Source: an uncultured Methanoregulaceae archaeon (lineage in GTDB: Archaea > Halobacteriota > Methanomicrobia > Methanomicrobiales > Methanospirillaceae). From it: a stretch of DNA of 64,000 nucleotides. Made by a program: the position numbers and the translations under genes. The stretch covers positions 1,280,001-1,344,000 of the forward strand of contig CAVTTL010000001.1 of NCBI GenBank assembly GCA_963737635.1. Reading direction: 5' to 3'. The notes beneath the pieces are model-generated. The model made no database searches. It was not told the origin of the DNA and saw nothing but the letters and a program-made list of their open reading frames with translations. Below are positions 18,308-27,885 of the stretch, piece by piece (position 1 is the stretch's first letter; every line of letters begins with the position of its first letter).

Positions 18308-19193
18308 ATGGAAATTAATGGCGTGACAATTGACAACACCTATGCAGAGGCATTCCCCACCTGGGTCTGCCGGGTTATAATCACCGCAGTGACAAAAGAC
18401 TGGGCACTCAAGGCAGCAACCGAGGCAACCGGCTTTGCTACTTCCGCGATCGGCTGCCCGTGCGAAGCGGGTATCGAGACCATCCTTTCCGGCAGCGAGA
18501 CCCCCGATGGAAGACCCGGGGTTGCAATCCTTATCTGCGCAAGCAAAAAGAAACTCAAGGAGCAGGTTGTGGAGCGTCTTGCCGAATGCGTGCTGACCGC
18601 ACCTACAACGGCAGTCTTCAGTGGTATCACCGATGCCGAGGAGAAAATTCCGGTGAAGCTACATTTCTTCGGCGACGGGTATGAGTACCAGAAGGAAGTG
18701 GGCGGCAGGAAGTGCTGGGTCATTCCGATCATGAACGGCGAATATGTCGGGGAAGAGGAATTCGGTATCGTAAAAGGTGTCGCCGGCGGTAACTTCTTTA
18801 TCATGGGAGAGAACCAGATGGCAGCGCTCGTAGCCGCCCAAGCTGCGGTAGATGCCATTGCCGAAGTTAAGGGCGTTATCACGAGTTTCCCCGGCGGGAT
18901 CGTGGCAAGTGGCTCCAAAGTCGGCAGCCTGAAGTATAAATTCATGACGGCATCCACGAACGAGAAATACTGTCCTACGCTCCGCGAAAAAGTGGCAGAC
19001 AGCAAGGTTCCGGCGGGTGTAAAGGCGGTCTATGAAATCGTTATCGATGGTATTGACGAGAAGAGCGTTGCCGCTGCAATGGGAGCCGGGATCAAGGCAG
19101 CAGGTACAGGTGCCAGGAGTTAAGTTCATATCTGCGGGTAACTTTGGCGGTAGTCTCGGCCCGTTCAAGATCGAACTTGCAAAAGTTCTCTAG
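18308..19193 (+). CDS. ftr: Formylmethanofuran:H4MPT formyltransferase (apparent 1-nt insertion near 19103)
   Basis: MEINGVTIDNTYAEAF, TPDGRPG, GIVASGSKVG; the conserved C-terminus VPGVKFISAGNFGGSLGPFKI continues in the +1 frame to TAG 19193. Confidence 0.96.
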
Positions 19194-19282: not shown

Positions 19283-20239
19283 ATGATTACACTCACCCCC
19301 GACGACGTGAAACAGCGGTTTGGCCCGCTCTTCTCGAAGAAATTCTTGGTGATGGTAGACGAAACAACAGGACTTGCAGAGATCCTCGAGAAATGCCATG
19401 CCCGCGGGACGATAGAGTGGGACGCCATGAACCGATCCCGGGCCGGTGGTGCGGTGAAAGCGTGTGCTGTAGAGGGGTGCATGATGACGATACAGGCTCG
19501 CCTCGGCAGATATCCGGTCAATTTCGGTCCAGCCGCTGATACGATAGGTGGGCAGGCATTGGAAGCGGTTGAAGTGAACGGTGACGAGGTAATCACAACA
19601 TGGGCAGGTATAGCTGGTGCTGGTGTCGGTATTGCCGCGTGTCTCCCTCAGGCACCCGGGGTTATCCGGGCGGAATACCCGTTAGAAGAAGATCTCAGGA
19701 TTGGAGGTGCCCGGACCAACCATGTGAGGATAGTCTCGCCGAAGTACGAAAAGGTCTGCTTTGGTATTGACGATACGGATACAAAACAAGAGGGCGCCAC
19801 GTGGGTGATGGCACTCAAGTGTGCAGAGGCCTGTCATGTCCCGGGAGTGGAATTTCTTGGTATGCGCCTTATCCAGCTCAATCCGGCGGTTCCCGACAAA
19901 ACAACAAACTGTGTCGGTTCAGCGCTCAATTTTGCCGCCCGTTCCGGAAGCATCGAAGCACTTCGCGAGTTCGTCAGCACATTTGTAGGGAAACATACCT
20001 TCTCAAAGGACACCGGTATCGCATTTGCCCGGGGCATTGGAGCGATAAAGGAGTCTCGGGTGCTCAAGGCGATCAAAACCGAGATCGTACCGCTCGAAGA
20101 GGCTGAATCCGAGGCCCAGCGGCTGGGTATCGAGTTCCTCGACACTAACGGGAGAAAGGGGAGGATCGGTGCACTAGGTGCCGTGATCTGGGCGAATCGT
20201 GGCATCGAAGCGGCAGGTTTGTATGGCGAGCATCTCTGA
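19283..20239 (+). CDS. Methanogenesis marker protein 11-like, TiaS N-terminal-like domain (paralogue 1)
   Basis: GAGVGIAAC..APGV, FGIDDTDTKQEGATW, QLNPAVPDKTTNCV and G.IGALGA motifs. Confidence 0.8.
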   Translation: MITLTPDDVKQRFGPLFSKKFLVMVDETTGLAEILEKCHARGTIEWDAMNRSRAGGAVKACAVEGCMMTIQARLGRYPVNFGPAADTIGGQALEAVEVNGDEVITTWAGIAGAGVGIAACLPQAPGVIRAEYPLEEDLRIGGARTNHVRIVSPKYEKVCFGIDDTDTKQEGATWVMALKCAEACHVPGVEFLGMRLIQLNPAVPDKTTNCVGSALNFAARSGSIEALREFVSTFVGKHTFSKDTGIAFARGIGAIKESRVLKAIKTEIVPLEEAESEAQRLGIEFLDTNGRKGRIGALGAVIWANRGIEAAGLYGEHL

Positions 20240-21119
20240 ACCATATGTCATAAAATATCCGCAGATTGTGGCGGTTGCAGACGAGAGCGGCAGTAAAGTC
20301 GAGTTAATTGAATTCTTTGACTGTTTAGGTGGCGCGATGTGGACACAGCACCATTATGCCAAAAGCCCGCTCGTCGAAAATGTACGATGCGTAGGGGCAA
20401 CAACCCGTTTCCTGCTCCATCCCGGTCTTGTGGATCTCGCACTTGAAGGATCCCGGTTCCCCGCCGGAATATCAGGTGTCTCAGTCACTGGCGACGAGAT
20501 TGCCGTGACATACATCGGCATGGGCGGCGGAGGCGTAGGCGCGACATCCTGCCGTGCAGCTGCACGGGGCGTGCTGCGAGATCACTGCGATCCGGCAGGT
20601 GGGGGAAAAGTGGCAGGTGCAACACTTTGGCTGCCCCGGCGGCAGCGTGTGCTGATCGGGGTGGATGACACCGACACCGCAGAAGAGGGTGCGACCTGGA
20701 CCCTCGTCCATAACATCGCAAAGGCAGTGGAAGATGAATACACCGCATATCTGTCGCACACGATAGTCCAGCTCTTCCCGGTTGCGTACCGGACAAAGAA
20801 CTGCGTGAGCCTTGTTGCTGAATTTGGCACGACTCAACCGGAACGCCTTGTTGGGGAGTTTTACGAGCTGCTCCGGAAATATACCCTCTCTGAGAAGACC
20901 GGCATGGCAGTCTATACCGGCTTTGCTCCATCAAAAGAGCTCCTGGATTATGCAAGCAAAGTAAAACGAGGGGAAGTAACGCCGGATCTTGTGAATACCA
21001 TTAACGATCCCCAGCTCCGCATTGTTATGAACGGCCGGGGGATTACCGGGGCAGTGGCGGCACTGCCGTTCTCTACCCGTTACGAGGAGGCGCTGGAACT
21101 ATGCAGTGGGAAGAACTGA
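20223..21119 (+). CDS. Methanogenesis marker protein 11-like (paralogue 2)
   Basis: GGGGVGATSC..ARGV, IGVDDTDTAEEGATW, QLFPVAYRTKNCV and GITGAVAAL; same motif order as the upstream gene, which it overlaps. Confidence 0.8.
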   Translation: MASISEPYVIKYPQIVAVADESGSKVELIEFFDCLGGAMWTQHHYAKSPLVENVRCVGATTRFLLHPGLVDLALEGSRFPAGISGVSVTGDEIAVTYIGMGGGGVGATSCRAAARGVLRDHCDPAGGGKVAGATLWLPRRQRVLIGVDDTDTAEEGATWTLVHNIAKAVEDEYTAYLSHTIVQLFPVAYRTKNCVSLVAEFGTTQPERLVGEFYELLRKYTLSEKTGMAVYTGFAPSKELLDYASKVKRGEVTPDLVNTINDPQLRIVMNGRGITGAVAALPFSTRYEEALELCSGKN

Positions 21120-22069
21120 AGTCCCGGCTGCTTGAATGCGGTTCGGCCCGGCTCGGTGGGGAAACAGCGGACGATTTTATTGCGAAATCTACCGCTGGCC
21201 CAGGTGCCGGGGGAAAAGGTTCGGTCTTCTTTGCCATGGGCAGCCACCGGGTCAAACTCGCAATCAATCCTGCATCCTCCGTTGAGATTGTCCATCGGGG
21301 CGGTGGTGTCGCCGATCTGTATTTTGACGGCCGACAGATCCCCGGACGGCTCCTCCTGCCGGGGCTTCACTGCCCGGATCAGGCATTTATCACGGTAACG
21401 GAGAGTTGCATCTTCTCGTGCCGCTATTGTTCGGTTCCCCGGATCTCCGGGAAACGGAAGACTGTCGAGGAGATTATGGCACTCGTTGAATCGGTCCGGC
21501 ACCGTGTCAATGCTCTCTCTCTGACAAGTGGTGTCTTGGGGAGCATCGATGAGGAGGAAGCTTATGTCTGTGAGGTTATCGATCACCTGAGGTTCTTCGA
21601 ACTCCCTATGGGGGTCTCCATTTACCCGACCGAACAGACCCCGGACAAGCTCCATGCTCTCGGCGTTGATGAGGTAAAATTCAATATCGAGGCAGCGACG
21701 CCGGAACTTTTTGCAGAAATGTGTCCCGGCCTTGACTATGATCTCCTCTGGCGGGTCCTTGACCGTTCAGTGGATCTCTTCGGGAGAGGCCGGGTTTTTT
21801 CTAATGTCATTGTGGGGCTTGGTGAGACCGATGCAGAGATGGAGACCTGTATCAACCGGCTCGCATCCCACAGCGTTATACCAGTACTCCGGCCGCTTAA
21901 CCCGGTGGCAGGGTGTGCCGGCGGATCCCGGCCGTCCGCAGAACGGCTGAGGAAACTATTTGCCCTCCACCGGGAGGCCCTTTCCCGCGAAGGACTGGAT
22001 ACCGCCGGTGCTCTTACGATGTGTACGACTTGCGGGGGCTGCGATCTCGTACCAGGGAGGGATGAATGA
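21101..22069 (+). CDS. Radical SAM protein, biotin synthase-related
   Basis: CIFSCRYC; N-terminal STAGPGAG and HCP; SNVIVGLGETD; extra C-terminal CTTCGGC. Confidence 0.85.
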   Translation: MQWEELKSRLLECGSARLGGETADDFIAKSTAGPGAGGKGSVFFAMGSHRVKLAINPASSVEIVHRGGGVADLYFDGRQIPGRLLLPGLHCPDQAFITVTESCIFSCRYCSVPRISGKRKTVEEIMALVESVRHRVNALSLTSGVLGSIDEEEAYVCEVIDHLRFFELPMGVSIYPTEQTPDKLHALGVDEVKFNIEAATPELFAEMCPGLDYDLLWRVLDRSVDLFGRGRVFSNVIVGLGETDAEMETCINRLASHSVIPVLRPLNPVAGCAGGSRPSAERLRKLFALHREALSREGLDTAGALTMCTTCGGCDLVPGRDE

Positions 22070-23337
22070 AAGGTGTTGAGGCGCTGGCGGCTGCCATATG
22101 TGCGGGTACTGATCGCCGATATACGGTCCCGGGTTTCCCGGTAACCGAGCTTGGCACATTCACCCGGGCGGAGATGGTCATAAACGAGAAGACCGCACTT
22201 GAATATGCACTGGGAGATTCCCTTTCCGGTCAACGTGCAGCGGTCATTATAAAAAATGTTGGAGTAAACGCCTGCGCAGACCCTCTGGCCCAGGCTTCCG
22301 TACAGGGACTACGGGGAGGTGTTCTCCTTGTCGTGGGTGATGATCCCGACGCAAAAGGTTCCCAGACGGCACAGGACTCCCGTTATTACGGAGAACTGGC
22401 GGAACTTCCGGTGATCGAACCTGATACGACAACCTGCTTCACTGGCGTTGAAACGGCACTTACCGCTTCGGAAACATTTTCCCGCGTCGCTATGCTCCGG
22501 CTTACACCGCAGCTGCTGGACGCTGACGTCACCGGGGTGCCCATCCCCCGGAACCAAGGTAGCGGAAAGCTTGCCGATCCGGCCTGGACCATGCACGGCA
22601 GGGTAACTGCGGCCGAAGAAATCTACCGGACGATGTTTGTGTGGTCGGAGATATCACCCCAAAACCAGTGGAAAGACGGCACACTTGGCGCCGGTTCTGC
22701 ACCGGGGAATTCCCGGCTTGTGACGGTCAATCCGGTTCCCTCCCGTGCTGCAGGATTCCCATCGGTAAACGAGTACGGGAGGTCCTTTATCCGGGATCAC
22801 CGTACCCTAGTACCACCAGAACCGCAGGAACAGCCGGAATCCTATAAAAATCGGGGATTTAGCAGGACATTCTGCTCTGCATGCCCGTACCGGACCCTGC
22901 TTAACATTATCAGGGAAAAGGATATGCACCTGATATGCGACGCGGGGTGCTCGGTCTTTGGTATGAACCCGCCGTATAGTCTGGGCGTTGCCAGCTATGG
23001 TATGGGTTCGAGTATTGCGGTTGCCGCACGAAGCACGCATGTAGCGCTGATCGGGGACTACGCGCTGCTTCACTCGGGCCTCAACGCCCTTATCGACGTG
23101 TATGAAAAGAGACACCCACTCCTGTGTATTGTCATGAAAAATCACTGCGCAGCAATGACCGGGTGTCAGCCGGTGAGTGATCCGGTTCCTTATATCCGGT
23201 GGGCCGACCCGGTAGTCTGCCCTGCAGAAGATGAATGCCGCCTCCGCGAAATTATCCGGTACCCAGATGCGCCCTTAACGGTCGTAGTGGAAGCGGAATG
23301 CCCCAAGGGAGCACGCCATGAAACCGTGGAATGTTGA
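22066..23337 (+). CDS. TPP-dependent enzyme, truncated IorA (indolepyruvate oxidoreductase alpha)-like
   Basis: VPGFP.TE, NEKTALEYALG, GDDP..SQTAQDSR, FCSACPYR, DAGC, MGSSI and GDYALLHSG..N TPP motif; 423 aa with no ferredoxin domain. Confidence 0.85.
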   Translation: MKGVEALAAAICAGTDRRYTVPGFPVTELGTFTRAEMVINEKTALEYALGDSLSGQRAAVIIKNVGVNACADPLAQASVQGLRGGVLLVVGDDPDAKGSQTAQDSRYYGELAELPVIEPDTTTCFTGVETALTASETFSRVAMLRLTPQLLDADVTGVPIPRNQGSGKLADPAWTMHGRVTAAEEIYRTMFVWSEISPQNQWKDGTLGAGSAPGNSRLVTVNPVPSRAAGFPSVNEYGRSFIRDHRTLVPPEPQEQPESYKNRGFSRTFCSACPYRTLLNIIREKDMHLICDAGCSVFGMNPPYSLGVASYGMGSSIAVAARSTHVALIGDYALLHSGLNALIDVYEKRHPLLCIVMKNHCAAMTGCQPVSDPVPYIRWADPVVCPAEDECRLREIIRYPDAPLTVVVEAECPKGARHETVEC

Positions 23338-24445
23338 GATCTGTGACGTAACGCTCAGAGACGGAGAACAGACGCCCGGTGTGTCGTTCTCCTGCGAAGA
23401 AAAAGTGGACATCGCCCGGACCTTGGATTGTGTCGGCGTGGAAGTGATCGAGGCCGGGTTTCCGGCAGTCTCCGAAAACGAGAAACAGTGTGTAAAGACC
23501 ATCGCAAACCTCGGGCTCGATGCACGGATATGCGGTTTTGCCCGGGCACGGAAAGAGGATATTACGGCGGCAATAGACTGCGGTGTCGATATGGTATCCA
23601 TCTTTATCCCCACATCGGATCTCCATGTAAAGGTCAAATTCAGGAAACCACGTGAACAGGTGCTCGAAGATGCCCTTGCCATGATAGATTTCGCCCGGGA
23701 TCAGGGGGTTGCCGTGAGGTTTGCTGCGGAGGATGCATCGCGGACCGATCCGGTCTTCCTCAAGGAAGTATACCGGCGTGCGTCGGACCACGGGGCAGTC
23801 CTGCTCAGTTTCGCCGATACCGTGGGATGCTTGATCCCGGATGAGATGCGCACGATCATGGCTGATCTGGTCTCTTCGGTCGATCAGCCGTTTTGTGCCC
23901 ATTGCCACAACGATATGGGCTGCGCCGTTGCAAACACCATCACTGCGGCACAGGCTGGGGCGTTCCAGCTCCACACGACGGTCAATGGGATCGGTGAACG
24001 TTCAGGCAATGCCTCACTGGAAGAGGTGCTGGTTATCCTGCGAACCAAAGGCGGCATCGACCGGTATGATCTCTCGTACCTTTCCACACTCTCAAGAAAA
24101 GTAGAAAAGTATTCCGGTATTGCGCTCCCGAAGAACAAGCCGGTAACCGGAGAACTTGCATTTTCTCACGAAAGCGGCATCCACATCGCCGCTATTCTCG
24201 AAGATCCTGCCACGTATGAGTACTTCCCTCCGGACCTTGTGGGCGGGGAGCGGCACTTCATCCTTGGAAAGCACACCGGAAGAAAAGCGCTCGAACATGT
24301 CATCGCATCACTTGGCCAGGACCTCTCCGGGGCCCAGATCTGCCGGGTTCTTGATCTTGTTAAAGAACATTCCGAACAGAAATGCAGCATCACGCCCGAG
24401 GTATTGCAGAAGCTGATCCAGAAGGCACAGAGGGAGATGGTATGA
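23318..24445 (+). CDS. aksA: (R)-homocitrate synthase family (AksA)
   Basis: DVTLRDGEQTPG, HCHNDMG, NGIGERSGNA, HESGIH and LGKHTG; 375 aa without the LeuA regulatory domain. Confidence 0.85.
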   Translation: MKPWNVEICDVTLRDGEQTPGVSFSCEEKVDIARTLDCVGVEVIEAGFPAVSENEKQCVKTIANLGLDARICGFARARKEDITAAIDCGVDMVSIFIPTSDLHVKVKFRKPREQVLEDALAMIDFARDQGVAVRFAAEDASRTDPVFLKEVYRRASDHGAVLLSFADTVGCLIPDEMRTIMADLVSSVDQPFCAHCHNDMGCAVANTITAAQAGAFQLHTTVNGIGERSGNASLEEVLVILRTKGGIDRYDLSYLSTLSRKVEKYSGIALPKNKPVTGELAFSHESGIHIAAILEDPATYEYFPPDLVGGERHFILGKHTGRKALEHVIASLGQDLSGAQICRVLDLVKEHSEQKCSITPEVLQKLIQKAQREMV

Positions 24446-25653
24446 GCACGCTGTCAGAACGTATCCTGGGTGCAGCTGCAGGGGAATATGTCGACCGGAA
24501 GGTTGACAGGGCATATGCCCATGATGGCACCGGTGTCCTTACCTTGGAAGCCTGGAAAGACATGGGCGGAGACCGGTTGGGAAAAGATACCGGATATTAT
24601 ATCCAGTTCGATCATATAGCCCCGGCCAACAATAGCACGACCGCGACCCTCCAGCACGAGCTCAGGGATTTTGCGAAACGTTCGTTTATGCAGTTCTCCG
24701 ATATCGGCTGCGGCATCTGCCACCAGCTGATGGGCGAGGGTATCGTCCTGCCCGGGGAGATTGTCGTCGGCGCAGATTCGCACAGTGTTACGCTCGGGGC
24801 ATTTGGAGCGTTTGCGACCGGTATGGGCGCCACCGACATGGCTGCGATCTGGCTGACTGGGGAGACTTGGTTCCGGGTTCCCGAATCTGTGGGCATTCAC
24901 CTGAGCGGAAGGTTCACTGGTGCTGCGGAAGCAAAGGATCTTGCGCTGGCCTACGTAGGAAAACTCGGCACGGACGGTGCAACCTATCAGGCACTGGAGT
25001 TTGTAGGCGAAGGCACGCACTATCTTTCGATGGACGAACGCCTCGTACTTGCAAATCTTTCTGTCGAAGCCGGGGCAAAGGCAGGGCTCTTCTACGCGGA
25101 TGATGTGACGGTCCGCTACCTGAAGGAGCATGGGCATGACGTCGCGTTTCAGGAATACGAATCCTGTACATACCGGCAGGAACTCGATCTCGATCTTGCA
25201 GATATCGTGCCGCTCGTTGCGGTGCCCCACCGGGTGGACACGGTAAAGCCCGTGGATGCGGTTGCCGGCTTACCGCTTGACCAGGTCTTTGTTGGCACCT
25301 GCACTAACGGCCGGTATTCCGATCTCGCCCGGTTTGCCCGGATGATTAAGGGCAGGAAAGTGGCCGTACGGACCATCGTGGTTCCGGCATCAGCTTCGGT
25401 TCTTGAAAAGGCAATCCGGACCGGGGTGCTTACCGATATTGTCGGGGCCGGGTGCACTCTCGGGACGCCCGGGTGTGGTCCCTGTCTCGGGTACCATATG
25501 GGGGTACTCGGTGAAGGGGAAGTCTGCCTCTCGACAGCCAACCGGAATTTCAGGAACCGTATGGGTATCGGCGGGGAAATCTACCTTGGTTCTGTCGCTA
25601 CTGCCGCAGCAAGTGCTCTCGCAGGTGAAATTGCATCGCCGGAGGCCGGATAA
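24442..25653 (+). CDS. aksD: Homoaconitase/isopropylmalate isomerase large subunit (AksD)
   Basis: FDH, GICHQ, GADSH, GTCTNGR, GCGPCLG and STANRNFRNRMG; ATGA overlap with aksA. Confidence 0.85.
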   Translation: MSTLSERILGAAAGEYVDRKVDRAYAHDGTGVLTLEAWKDMGGDRLGKDTGYYIQFDHIAPANNSTTATLQHELRDFAKRSFMQFSDIGCGICHQLMGEGIVLPGEIVVGADSHSVTLGAFGAFATGMGATDMAAIWLTGETWFRVPESVGIHLSGRFTGAAEAKDLALAYVGKLGTDGATYQALEFVGEGTHYLSMDERLVLANLSVEAGAKAGLFYADDVTVRYLKEHGHDVAFQEYESCTYRQELDLDLADIVPLVAVPHRVDTVKPVDAVAGLPLDQVFVGTCTNGRYSDLARFARMIKGRKVAVRTIVVPASASVLEKAIRTGVLTDIVGAGCTLGTPGCGPCLGYHMGVLGEGEVCLSTANRNFRNRMGIGGEIYLGSVATAAASALAGEIASPEAG

Positions 25654-26123
25654 TGAAGGGCAAAGGAACCGCCGTATGCCTCCCGGCAGATATCGATACC
25701 GATGTCATTATCGCCGGCCGGTACTTGCGGACGAAGGATCAGGGAGTCTGGGCAACCCATGTGTTCGAGGATCTCGATCCTTCGCTTGCCCCCCGTCTCA
25801 AAGGAGCTGTTATTGTCGCCGGCAAAAATTTCGGGTGCGGCTCTTCGCGGGAGCAGGCGACCATTGCCCTCAGGGAGGCAGGGATTGTTGCTGTCATTGC
25901 CCCGTCGTTTGCACGGATATTCTTCCGGAACGCGATCAATATCGGCCTTCCGCTCATCGAATCAGATCTGGCCTGTGCGGAAGGCAGCAGGGTAACATTT
26001 GACCTGTCAGGTGGTTGGGTGGAGACTGGCGGGAAAAGGCACGAAATCCGTTCGTTGTCTCCCCGGATGCAGGAAATCCTGGACGCGGGGGGCCTCGTTG
26101 AATATTGGAGGGCTCACCGATGA
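25653..26123 (+). CDS. aksE: Homoaconitase small subunit (AksE)
   Basis: DIDTDVIIAGRYLRT (YLRT loop typical of methanogen homoaconitase), NFGCGSSRE and FARIFFRNAINIGL. Confidence 0.87.
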   Translation: MKGKGTAVCLPADIDTDVIIAGRYLRTKDQGVWATHVFEDLDPSLAPRLKGAVIVAGKNFGCGSSREQATIALREAGIVAVIAPSFARIFFRNAINIGLPLIESDLACAEGSRVTFDLSGGWVETGGKRHEIRSLSPRMQEILDAGGLVEYWRAHR

Positions 26124-26920
26124 TCTTTCCGGACCATTGCAAGTATGTGGGGATTGCTTCGACCCGACCCTGCGGAGATCGGGTCTATACCCTGAGCCGG
26201 TATCTCCTGTGTGAGACAGAGCGGGGGTATGAACTCCGGGAAGTTATCCTTGATCATACCGGAAAAAACGTTATGAGGAAAATTATCTCCTCCAGAGTAC
26301 TTGCAACTCCGGCGGAGTTTTACTGTTACCCTGAAAAAGTGCAGCTTAACGACAGGGCGAGACTCGTACGGCTCGCATCTGAAAGCGGGTACCGGTGCAC
26401 GGTCTTTACCGGTCTCGAGGAAAACATGACGTTTGTCCTCGATCCCGATCTGTCAGGATTCCTTACAGTGCACGTCTATGATGTCATACCACCCCGTCCG
26501 ACCCTTTCGGCGAGCCTGAAAGAAATGGAGGCGATCGGTCTCTTCGGGGAACTTTCGGTGGTCTTCGACCATCATATCCGGGACATTACTGTGGTGCCTG
26601 CGGATGTCTATCCATGCCGGGCTGCAGGATATACGAGGACGCTGGACGCCGATCCCCTGCATGGTGGCGAACGGGTGGCCGGGTGCCTTACGGCGAAACA
26701 ATTCTGTACTGAGTGCTATGGGACGGATTTTGTGCTCGAGACTATCTGCCCCCTTGAACAAGTTGCAGAAGAGCCCTTTATTGCCCGGTGCTGCCGGTCT
26801 GAGCGGGAGGGCGTAGGTACCTGGAACGGCAGGTTCGGGGCGATTGTCCACTGGGGTGCAGATCCGGCAAAGATTGCCCGGTCAGTCCAGGAACTGGTCA
26901 GGCAGTGGAGGGCAAGATGA
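26120..26920 (+). CDS. Cys-rich protein of unknown function inside the aks operon
   Basis: 266-aa ORF coupled by ATGA overlaps at both ends; Cys cluster YPC..GC..CxxC..CP..RCC..VHWG. Confidence 0.8.
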   Translation: MIFPDHCKYVGIASTRPCGDRVYTLSRYLLCETERGYELREVILDHTGKNVMRKIISSRVLATPAEFYCYPEKVQLNDRARLVRLASESGYRCTVFTGLEENMTFVLDPDLSGFLTVHVYDVIPPRPTLSASLKEMEAIGLFGELSVVFDHHIRDITVVPADVYPCRAAGYTRTLDADPLHGGERVAGCLTAKQFCTECYGTDFVLETICPLEQVAEEPFIARCCRSEREGVGTWNGRFGAIVHWGADPAKIARSVQELVRQWRAR

Positions 26921-27885
26921 CGCGGATCGCGGTTGTTGAAGGCGACGGGATAGGTCATGAGGTGATTCCGGTTGCCCAGAAAGCGCTAGCGTTGCTCCAC
27001 CCTGAGTATGATTATTTTCCGGTCGAGGTCGGGTACGGCCGGTGGGAGCAGACCGGCTGCCCCTGTGCGGACAACGATATTTCCATGCTCAAAACAGCTG
27101 ATGCTATCCTGTTTGGTGCCATTACCACCCCCCCGATGAAAGACTACCAGAGTGTCGTTTTGCGGATCCGTAAGGCACTCGACCTGTTTGCAAACCTGCG
27201 GCCAGTCCGGGGCGACGGGTTTGATTTCATGATCGTCAGGGAAAATACGGAAGGACTCTACTCGGGGATCGAGGAGCTCAGCAACGACCGTGCGACAACA
27301 CTCCGGCTGGTGACCCGGCCGGGGACCGAGCGAATTGCACGGGCGGCGATCCGGCGTGCGCAGCAGCGGCGGGGAAAACTAACGATAGGCCACAAGGCAA
27401 ACGTCCTCAAATCGGATGTCTTCTTTCGGGACATCTGTGTAGCTGAGGCAAAAAAGGCCGGCGTTTCTTACAGTGATAAGTTCATCGATTCGCTTAGTCT
27501 CGATGTCCTCCAGCATCCGGAAGTATATGATGTCATTGTAACCACGAATATCTTTGGCGATATCCTATCAGACGTTTCCTCGTATCTTGTTGGGGGCCTG
27601 GGCCTTGTGCCAAGTGCAAATATCGGGGATCGGTACGCCCTGTTTGAACCGGTACATGGGAGCGCCCCGGATATTGCCGGTAAAAACATTGCAAATCCTG
27701 TAGCAGCCCTGCGGAGTGCTGCGATGCTTCTCGCCCATCTTGGAGATAAAGAGGGTTCTCAGCGGATAGAATTGGCTATATGCGAAGTACTCGCGACCGG
27801 TATCCGGACCCGGGATATTGGGGGATCAGCCGGAACCCGCGAGTTCGGTGATGCGGTCACGAGAGTCCTTGGCTGGCAGGGATAG
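26917..27885 (+). CDS. aksF: Homoisocitrate/isopropylmalate dehydrogenase family (AksF)
   Basis: [40 protein letters not shown] and [13 protein letters not shown]. Confidence 0.85.

Follow-up and report, generated by a model that had tools for sequence, protein, structure and literature searches.

Which reaction could be catalyzed by a shortened relative of IorA that is encoded among aks genes is the question raised by the DNA analyzed here, a 64,000-nucleotide stretch (referred to below as the window) of contig CAVTTL010000001.1, positions 1,280,001 to 1,344,000 of the forward strand, from an uncultured Methanoregulaceae archaeon (assembly GCA_963737635.1). The protein, P0001, is the product of the gene referred to below as the TPP gene, after the cofactor thiamine diphosphate (ThDP, also TPP). 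According to the preliminary description of the window, it has lost its electron-transfer parts and may either decarboxylate 2-oxosuberate non-oxidatively, yielding 7-oxoheptanoate, or make pimeloyl coenzyme A (pimeloyl-CoA) with partners encoded elsewhere. The analysis presented here points to P0001 as the best candidate so far, on sequence evidence, for the 2-oxosuberate decarboxylase of coenzyme B synthesis.

22066..23337, + strand: IorA-like ThDP enzyme (P0001), 423 aa, ATG start, from the open reading frame list and its translation.

The translation and the Pfam and TIGR03336 searches agree with the preliminary description in that this 423-aa open reading frame carries the N-terminal and TPP-binding motifs of IorA and lacks the ferredoxin domain with two [4Fe-4S] clusters. 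The sole Pfam domain match is TPP_enzyme_C (aa 285 to 368), with no Fer4 domain found in P0001, and the best NCBIfam family is IOR_alpha (TIGR03336), at 151.9 bits versus a cut-off of 650.9. In the genome search, this match was limited to model positions 9 to 163 and 357 to 468, leaving positions 164 to 356 unmatched. Residue conservation was taken from tblastn alignments over 100 fetched loci (90 from Methanomicrobiales and 10 encoding the longer sister forms described below), along with two multiple alignments, A1 (13 cluster representatives) and A2 (33 sequences, including canonical IorAs). The following regions and motifs could be delineated, domain numbers being those of the 2-oxoacid:ferredoxin oxidoreductases (OFORs).

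22066..22515, + strand: N-terminal pyrimidine-binding domain (OFOR domain I), approximately aa 1 to 150, matching IOR_alpha positions 9 to 163; contains G23-F-P-V-T27 (YPITP-like), E41 (NEK) and R106.
22516..22845, + strand: shortened middle region, remnant of OFOR/IorA domain II, approximately aa 151 to 260, from alignments A1 and A2; boundaries approximate.
22846..23337, + strand: C-terminal diphosphate-binding domain (OFOR domain VI), Pfam TPP_enzyme_C, aligning with the StOFOR2 beta chain 5b48_B (E 1.3e-6).
22873..22884, + strand: C270-x-x-C273-P motif, equivalent of CXGC; C270 and C273 each in 100/100 loci.
22939..22950, + strand: D292-x-G-C295, third putative cluster ligand, aligning with GIGCS of the OFOR beta subunit; C295 in 100/100 loci.
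23053..23142, + strand: ThDP/Mg motif G330-D331-Y...N359, aligned to GDS...N of canonical IorA; G330, D331 and N359 in 100/100 loci.
23299..23301, + strand: C412 in an E-C-P-x-G motif, fourth putative cluster ligand, aligning with qpCPty of StOFOR2 beta.

In OFORs, the YPITP Thr and a conserved Arg bind the carboxylate of the 2-oxoacid and the CXGC motif ligates the proximal [4Fe-4S] cluster, as stated in the available part of PMC5020499. In the P0001 family, the ThDP-activating Glu41 is found in all 100 loci, the carboxylate-binding Arg106 in 98 and Thr27 in 93. C270 and C295 are also invariant in A1 and A2, with C273 and C412 present in at least 90% of the rows. Among the Methanomicrobiales loci, C412 is seen in 89 of 90, the remaining one falling outside the high-scoring segment pair; among the 10 sister loci it is aligned in 3, not covered in 6 and replaced by Leu in 1. 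Other cysteines of P0001 (C361, C367, C385 and C391) are not conserved over the 100 loci. The A2 profile pairs “D-a-G-C-s” with the “GIGCS” and “g-e-C-P-e-g” with the “qpCPty” of StOFOR2 beta. The protein is accordingly not as stripped as was first supposed: of the electron-transfer parts, the two-cluster ferredoxin domain alone has been lost, and the four conserved Cys residues (C270, C273, C295 and C412) are predicted to form one remaining [4Fe-4S] site, which could have a structural, redox-sensing or electron relay role.

In domain I, the A2 profile matched the OFOR alpha chains 1yd7_A (2.1e-10) and 8ys5_A. A profile of the short family alone, compared with the PDB sequences, gave a single marginal match (oxalyl-CoA decarboxylase 2q27_A, E 0.009), so the wider profile A2 was needed. 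The AlphaFold2 model of P0001 has a mean pLDDT (predicted local distance difference test) of 94.6 and a pTM (predicted template modeling score) of 0.94. Its top Foldseek matches are the one-chain ThDP enzymes of the decarboxylase (DC) family (8x3x_B, E 2.5e-14, TMq, the query-based template modeling score, of 0.58; range, 0.55 to 0.6), with 10 to 16% identity and a global root mean square deviation of ∼15 Å in these superpositions. DC-family enzymes (PDC, acetolactate synthase, HACL and HKA synthase) have the same order of pyrimidine-binding, middle and diphosphate-binding domains in one chain, and the Foldseek ranking of the model is read as reflecting this shared order, not DC-family membership; in sequence, P0001 does not belong to that family, the likeness being a marginal profile match and a resemblance of fold. 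To our knowledge, DC-family ThDP enzymes do not carry such a cluster site. P0001 possesses the OFOR catalytic core, comprising the Thr/Arg/Glu set, the four aligned Cys residues and a GDG-X(25-30)-N-type motif, and by its sequence is a minimal member of the OFOR/IorA lineage. The CoA-binding domain III is absent from P0001, from the operon and from the sister loci examined.

Three systems provide the closest comparisons. With IorA (TIGR03336), P0001 shares the N-terminal pyrimidine-binding domain, the Glu of NEK, the Arg of DSR, the GD...N ThDP motif and the CxxC...D-x-G-C...C cysteines. It differs from IorA in scoring under the cut-off, in having no C-terminal 2x[4Fe-4S] domain and no adjacent iorB (TIGR03334, POR gamma-like), in the loss of most of domain II, in belonging to a separate clade and in its aks/MMP11 context. 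None of the IorA-defining features that were tested (score, ferredoxin domain and adjacent IorB) is present. With StOFOR1/2 (PDB entries 5b46 to 5b48; also 1yd7 and 8ys5), P0001 shares a single [4Fe-4S] site (a predicted one in P0001), the absence of an internal ferredoxin domain, the YPITP-type Thr and the Arg for the carboxylate, and alignable CXGC and C-terminal CP motifs. However, StOFOR has domain III (the CoA side), a full domain II, and domains I and VI on two chains, whereas in P0001 domains I and VI are fused in a single 423-aa chain without domain III. The likeness to the sulfopyruvate decarboxylase ComDE is an analogy of role only, namely, non-oxidative decarboxylation of a 2-oxoacid in a thiol-cofactor pathway of methanogens.

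A canonical iorA gene is present in the same genome (590 aa, 827.7 bits with IOR_alpha, Fer4 at aa 535 to 584) and is followed by iorB; this pair lies ∼65 kb upstream of the TPP gene, beyond the window, and P0001 is ∼26% identical to that IorA. IorB is encoded in a single copy in the genome (tblastn, E≤1e-10), beside the canonical iorA, and ComD is encoded elsewhere in this genome. In line with the preliminary description, which had noted no iorB neighbor, tblastn with the genome's own IorB gave no match in the window at E≤1e-4. The canonical pair (G000:C1:1234599-1237850, locus L001) has a gene for an N6/N4 DNA methylase directly 3′ of it.

The 120 best homologs of P0001 are all 422 to 426 aa long and cover 97 to 100% of the query, the named ones coming from Methanoregula. 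Clustering at 50% yielded about a dozen clusters of full-length short proteins of 370 to 425 aa, with named members from Methanofollis and Methanorbis, and a longer group of 480 to 550 aa, with named members from Methanotrichaceae, Methermicoccaceae and Methanosalsum. The middle region varies in length among the short forms and is longer in the sister forms of ∼500 aa. Genome searches were confined to the phylum of the window (301 genomes, and a sample of 121 genomes of the order Methanomicrobiales), and over the 301 genomes the sister form (230 to 290 bits over nearly the full length of the model) was found in families f7, f10, f14, f24, f30 and f34. In an IQ-TREE “quick” tree of 45 sequences (13 short forms, 11 labeled beforehand as sister forms and 21 canonical IorAs), the short forms make up one clade with an approximate likelihood ratio test (SH-aLRT) value of 100, and this clade and 10 of the 11 sister forms are separated from the 21 canonical IorAs by another branch with an SH-aLRT of 100; the remaining labeled sister, P0159, groups with the canonical IorAs. 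The short IorA-like proteins represent a dedicated, conserved family distinct from canonical IorA. In two genomes of genus g67 of family f10, the sister gene contains one in-frame TAG (G235:C90:2535-3956 and G214:C3:9175-10635), which could be an assembly error, a sign of a pseudogene or a read-through codon.

The ATG of the TPP gene shares bases with the TGA of an upstream radical S-adenosylmethionine (SAM) gene (ATGA, 22066 to 22069), the sequence GGGAGGG lies 5 to 11 nt upstream of its start, and its 3′ end runs for 20 nt into the aksA-like gene, whose ATG is at 23318, an overlap that had already been recognized in the preliminary description. Judged by these junctions, the gene is translationally coupled into an operon with the order MMP11a-MMP11b-radical SAM-TPP-aksA-aksD-aksE-DUF7714-aksF, which contains no ferredoxin gene and is preceded by the gene for formylmethanofuran:tetrahydromethanopterin (H4MPT) formyltransferase.

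18308-19123, + strand: Ftr (formylmethanofuran:H4MPT formyltransferase), before MMP11a, after a gap.
19283..20239, + strand: MMP11a, paralog of methanogenesis marker protein 11 (MMP11), 184.8 bits, below the TIGR03280 cut-off.
20199..21119, + strand: MMP11b, methanogenesis marker protein 11, scoring above the TIGR03280 cut-off and carrying, like MMP11a, a TiaS TCKD-like domain.
21101..22069, + strand: radical SAM protein; motifs CxxxCxxC and, at the C terminus, CxxCxxC; weak resemblance to LipS2/lipoyl synthase; translationally coupled to the TPP gene, which follows it.
23318..24445, + strand: AksA-like member of the homocitrate synthase family, from domain and family searches, overlapping the TPP gene by 20 nt.
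24382..25653, + strand: AksD/HacA-like homoaconitase large subunit, from domain and family searches.
25653..26123, + strand: AksE/HacB-like small subunit, from domain and family searches.
26105..26920, + strand: DUF7714 protein (PF24830), Cys-rich, with a weak XcbA-family match.
26905..27885, + strand: AksF-like homoisocitrate dehydrogenase, from domain and family searches.

A second, Leu-type set of isomerase and dehydrogenase genes is found elsewhere in the genome, as are two further LeuA-like genes, so the aks-like set of the operon is an extra, cofactor-type one.

This gene order is strongly conserved. Among the 80 Methanoregulaceae-type loci (the best 80 loci of a contig scan, all from Methanomicrobiales), the radical SAM gene lies directly upstream of the TPP gene in 78/78 testable cases and aksA lies directly downstream in 76/77. 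The arrangement radical SAM-TPP-aksA...DUF7714-aksF is kept in 10/10 loci from the six families of Methanomicrobiales. In all 10 loci from other families, the TPP homolog adjoins MMP11 (L116, L118, L119, L122, L123 and L124) and/or aks genes, namely, a divergent aksA with aksD-E-F-DUF7714 (L117, L119, L120, L121 and L125); the MMP11 and TPP genes overlap by 4 nt in L116, L118 and L124. Match coordinates place MMP11 next to the TPP gene in most of the listed genomes of f7, f24 and f14; in f10, by contrast, the two are distant from each other and the TPP gene is found beside aks. The aks linkage of orthologs of this length, which the preliminary description had singled out for checking, is therefore borne out. 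The other neighbors in three sister loci are unrelated genes (coding for RadC, CN hydrolase, PAP2 and Lon-like proteins and for cobalamin-related functions), with no ferredoxin or IorB gene among them. Across the order, Ftr was seen upstream of the operon in 9/10 loci, at variable distances; it is probably a part of the conserved neighborhood and not a pathway member.

The distribution of the TPP and aks genes points in the same direction. With thresholds of E≤1e-66 for the TPP family and E≤1e-75 for AksF, TPP family-level matches were found in 111 of the 121 genomes of the order; 110 genomes carry both the TPP gene and an aksF ortholog, 8 carry neither and 3 are discordant. Both are missing in G024, G048, G077, G120, G109, G113, G068 and G093 (completeness of 99, 97, 95, 92, 91, 89, 81 and 62%, respectively); only the TPP gene is missing in G104 and G107 (91% complete, in 170 to 250 contigs), and only AksF in G098 (62% complete). 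In these counts related genomes are not independent, and the loss occurred in at least two genera (g19 and g17). The genomes G024, G048 and G077 (95 to 99% complete) retain an MMP11a-MMP11b-radical SAM-DUF7714 operon devoid of TPP and aks genes (G024:C55, G048:C23 and G077:C7; loci L126 to L128), and their only AksF paralogs are Leu-type, with 38 to 41% identity versus 61% in the TPP-positive congener G030. Loss of the TPP gene along with aks, with the rest of the operon being kept, indicates that it belongs to the aks module. In three other genomes (G109, G113 and G120), the radical SAM gene and MMP11b are missing as well; these genomes keep an MMP11a-type gene and DUF7714, which are adjacent in G109 (G109:C6:160620-162485) and G113. 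This pattern suggests that three modules are lost stepwise (Aks and TPP, then radical SAM and MMP11b, then MMP11a and DUF7714) and that the TPP enzyme acts with the Aks enzymes at the start of the pathway. The reduced operons, which were seen in certain small genomes of the order, suggest salvage of coenzyme B intermediates; one member of the order, Methanomicrobium mobile, is described as a coenzyme B auxotroph in the available part of PMC10658910.

Taken together, the linkage and co-loss with aks tie P0001 to the 2-oxosuberate branch of coenzyme B synthesis, and its position in a separate clade, in a genome that has its own canonical iorAB and comD, indicates that it is neither IorA nor ComD. 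P0001 is likely to catalyze the step that consumes 2-oxosuberate, whether by an oxidative or a non-oxidative reaction. Non-oxidative decarboxylation with release of 7-oxoheptanoate is a serious possibility that we rate at slightly less than even. By this mechanism, P0001 would take 2-oxosuberate, the end product of the adjacent Aks chain-elongation enzymes, bind it via the conserved Thr27/Arg106 pair and decarboxylate it on ThDP. Protonation followed by release of 7-oxoheptanoate would be the most likely outcome because the operon includes no partner with the CoA-binding domain III and because the aldehyde is on the classical route, by which 7-oxoheptanoate would then be turned into 7-mercaptoheptanoate; the neighboring MMP11, radical SAM and DUF7714 proteins may be responsible for the subsequent reactions leading to coenzyme B. 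Of the original proposal, the dedicated, aks-tied enzyme stands and non-oxidative chemistry remains plausible from the sequence, whereas the loss of electron-transfer parts does not. The other product suggested there, pimeloyl-CoA as for biotin, now looks weak: no match to BioF and none over the cut-off to BioB were found in this 90%-complete genome, so coenzyme B remains the known sink of 2-oxosuberate. The accessible portion of PMC3087415 (2011) names no sink of the Aks pathway other than coenzyme B, mentions a semialdehyde intermediate and lists about 2 unknown proteins for the pathway. A more recent article (PMC12068725, May 2025) says, in the part available, of the coenzyme B pathway that it “is still unknown” and suggests MMP16 or L-ASST as possible participants. 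The literature searched, which comprised sources other than subscription journals and supplements, contained no gene named for 2-oxosuberate decarboxylation or for the late steps of coenzyme B synthesis.

Several points weigh against this assignment, particularly in its non-oxidative version. The four conserved cluster Cys residues are not needed by a plain non-oxidative decarboxylase and point towards redox chemistry, and we know of no non-oxidative decarboxylase in the OFOR lineage. IorB is encoded elsewhere in 5/5 TPP-positive genomes tested, which makes pairing in trans possible, although this observation is not discriminating. ComDE or another enzyme could perform the 2-oxosuberate step instead, and the literature searched included no biochemical or genetic test of the P0001 family. 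Finally, the TPP family is not universal among the likely coenzyme B makers. MMP11 (TIGR03280) is present in 154 of the 301 genomes of the phylum, and at E≤1e-40, the threshold used for the phylum, the TPP family was not found in the MMP11-positive genomes of families f8, f16, f17, f28 and f31 (MMP11 in 13/46 f8 genomes, with the TPP family in 0/46, and in 3/4, 1/7 and 2/2 genomes of f16, f17 and f28, respectively). In f7, 25 of the 37 genomes pass this threshold and the weaker matches listed adjoin MMP11, so the shortfall in that family is at least partly a threshold effect. There are probably at least two ways in which this step is performed, the TPP enzyme being one of them. The predicted complex of the TPP enzyme with MMP11b had a score of 0.00 and was counted neither for nor against.

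The alternative that survives best keeps the pathway and the substrate and changes the chemistry. P0001 would be an oxidative one-cluster OFOR in which electrons from hydroxyalkyl-ThDP travel via the [4Fe-4S] cluster to the radical SAM enzyme or to a free ferredoxin; the pimeloyl group would be released as pimelate or handed to a thiol or sulfur acceptor and processed further by MMP11 as an ATP-dependent carboxyl activator. The alignment of the four Cys residues with the proximal-cluster ligands of OFORs speaks for such a reaction, as does translational coupling to a radical SAM enzyme, a user of low-potential electrons, and the linkage to aks and MMP11 fits it equally well. Moreover, the StOFORs, which have no internal ferredoxin domain, are still oxidoreductases that use external ferredoxin, according to the available part of PMC5020499. 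Yet neither the operon nor the surroundings of the sister genes examined include a domain III, IorB or ferredoxin gene, the radical SAM and TPP genes are not neighbors outside Methanomicrobiales, and the pathway intermediate named in the accessible portion of PMC3087415 is a semialdehyde. On balance, an oxidative reaction is possible but rather unlikely. Classical labeling work, which reportedly placed the aldehyde and not pimelate on the path, counts against it too.

The link to coenzyme B could also be only apparent, with P0001 serving another methanogen-specific, MMP11-linked pathway in which its substrate is some other 2-oxoacid or a less elongated Aks product. The choice of substrate comes from the neighbors only; of these, MMP11, DUF7714 and the radical SAM protein are without an established role, and Ftr is located just upstream in the 9/10 loci mentioned above. 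However, coenzyme B is the only Aks sink named in the consulted portion of PMC3087415, the TPP gene is co-lost with aksF, and the auxotrophy ascribed to M. mobile (PMC10658910, in part) fits the existence of genomes without the module, none of which is equated with that organism. We regard this alternative as improbable. Still less credible, and in our judgment very unlikely, is the idea that P0001 acts as a variant IOR alpha subunit, using the genome's single IorB in trans to oxidize aryl-pyruvates or other 2-oxoacids to acyl-CoA. IOR_alpha is indeed the best named family match and IorB is present in each of the five genomes tested, but that IorB adjoins a complete canonical IorA ∼65 kb away, the score is far below the family cut-off, the clade is separate and the aks/MMP11 context recurs in every lineage examined. 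Although P0001 is shorter than canonical IorA and lacks two of its domains, a decayed, functionless iorA fragment, which the preliminary description had listed as a refuting outcome, can be dismissed, given the uniform length of the 120 best homologs, the catalytic residues kept throughout the 100 loci, the confident AlphaFold2 model and retention of the always short form in 111/121 genomes of the order.

The radical SAM protein matches the LipS2/lipoyl synthase-like family at 70.6 bits versus a cut-off of 270; its orthologs, with 38 to 42% identity, are encoded away from the TPP gene in 5/5 genomes of other families. In families that are TPP negative and MMP11 positive, a divergent radical SAM homolog lies beside MMP11 in 8/10 loci, which makes MMP11-radical SAM the more widespread pair. 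The DUF7714 protein has a weak match (46.6 bits versus a cut-off of 150) to XcbA, a family of bacterial coenzyme M synthesis, and over the 301 genomes its family-level range equals that of the TPP family plus f28; of the control genomes, it is present in Methanosarcina acetivorans and not in Methanocaldococcus jannaschii. The MMP11 paralogs are candidates for ATP-dependent threonine ligation and/or phosphorylation in coenzyme B synthesis, an attractive assignment because TiaS-type TCKD domains activate a carbonyl with ATP. A third, weaker MMP11 paralog is encoded at G000:C1:1977057-1977809.

An intriguing, if somewhat doubtful, extension is that P0001 is the missing decarboxylase and that it and four of its neighbors (the two MMP11 paralogs, the radical SAM protein and DUF7714) account for the whole late coenzyme B pathway of Methanomicrobia and Methanosarcinia-type methanogens, the three modules (Aks and TPP, radical SAM and MMP11b, MMP11a and DUF7714) being shed stepwise in cofactor-scavenging lineages and the [4Fe-4S] cluster linking decarboxylation to a reductive sulfur reaction in the step that follows. 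If true, such cluster-coupled decarboxylation would be a type of reaction that is new to the OFOR superfamily. No methyl- or alkyl-coenzyme M reductase can work without coenzyme B, and the genes acting after 2-oxosuberate have long been unassigned. A concrete, conserved candidate with a sister copy in the genetically tractable Methanosarcina makes this gap in the pathway directly testable. If the assignment is correct, the enzyme would also show that an OFOR core reduced to two domains and one cluster can take on a new function, and it would offer methane mitigation a new target specific to methanogens and heterologous methyl-coenzyme M reductase systems a component that they require.

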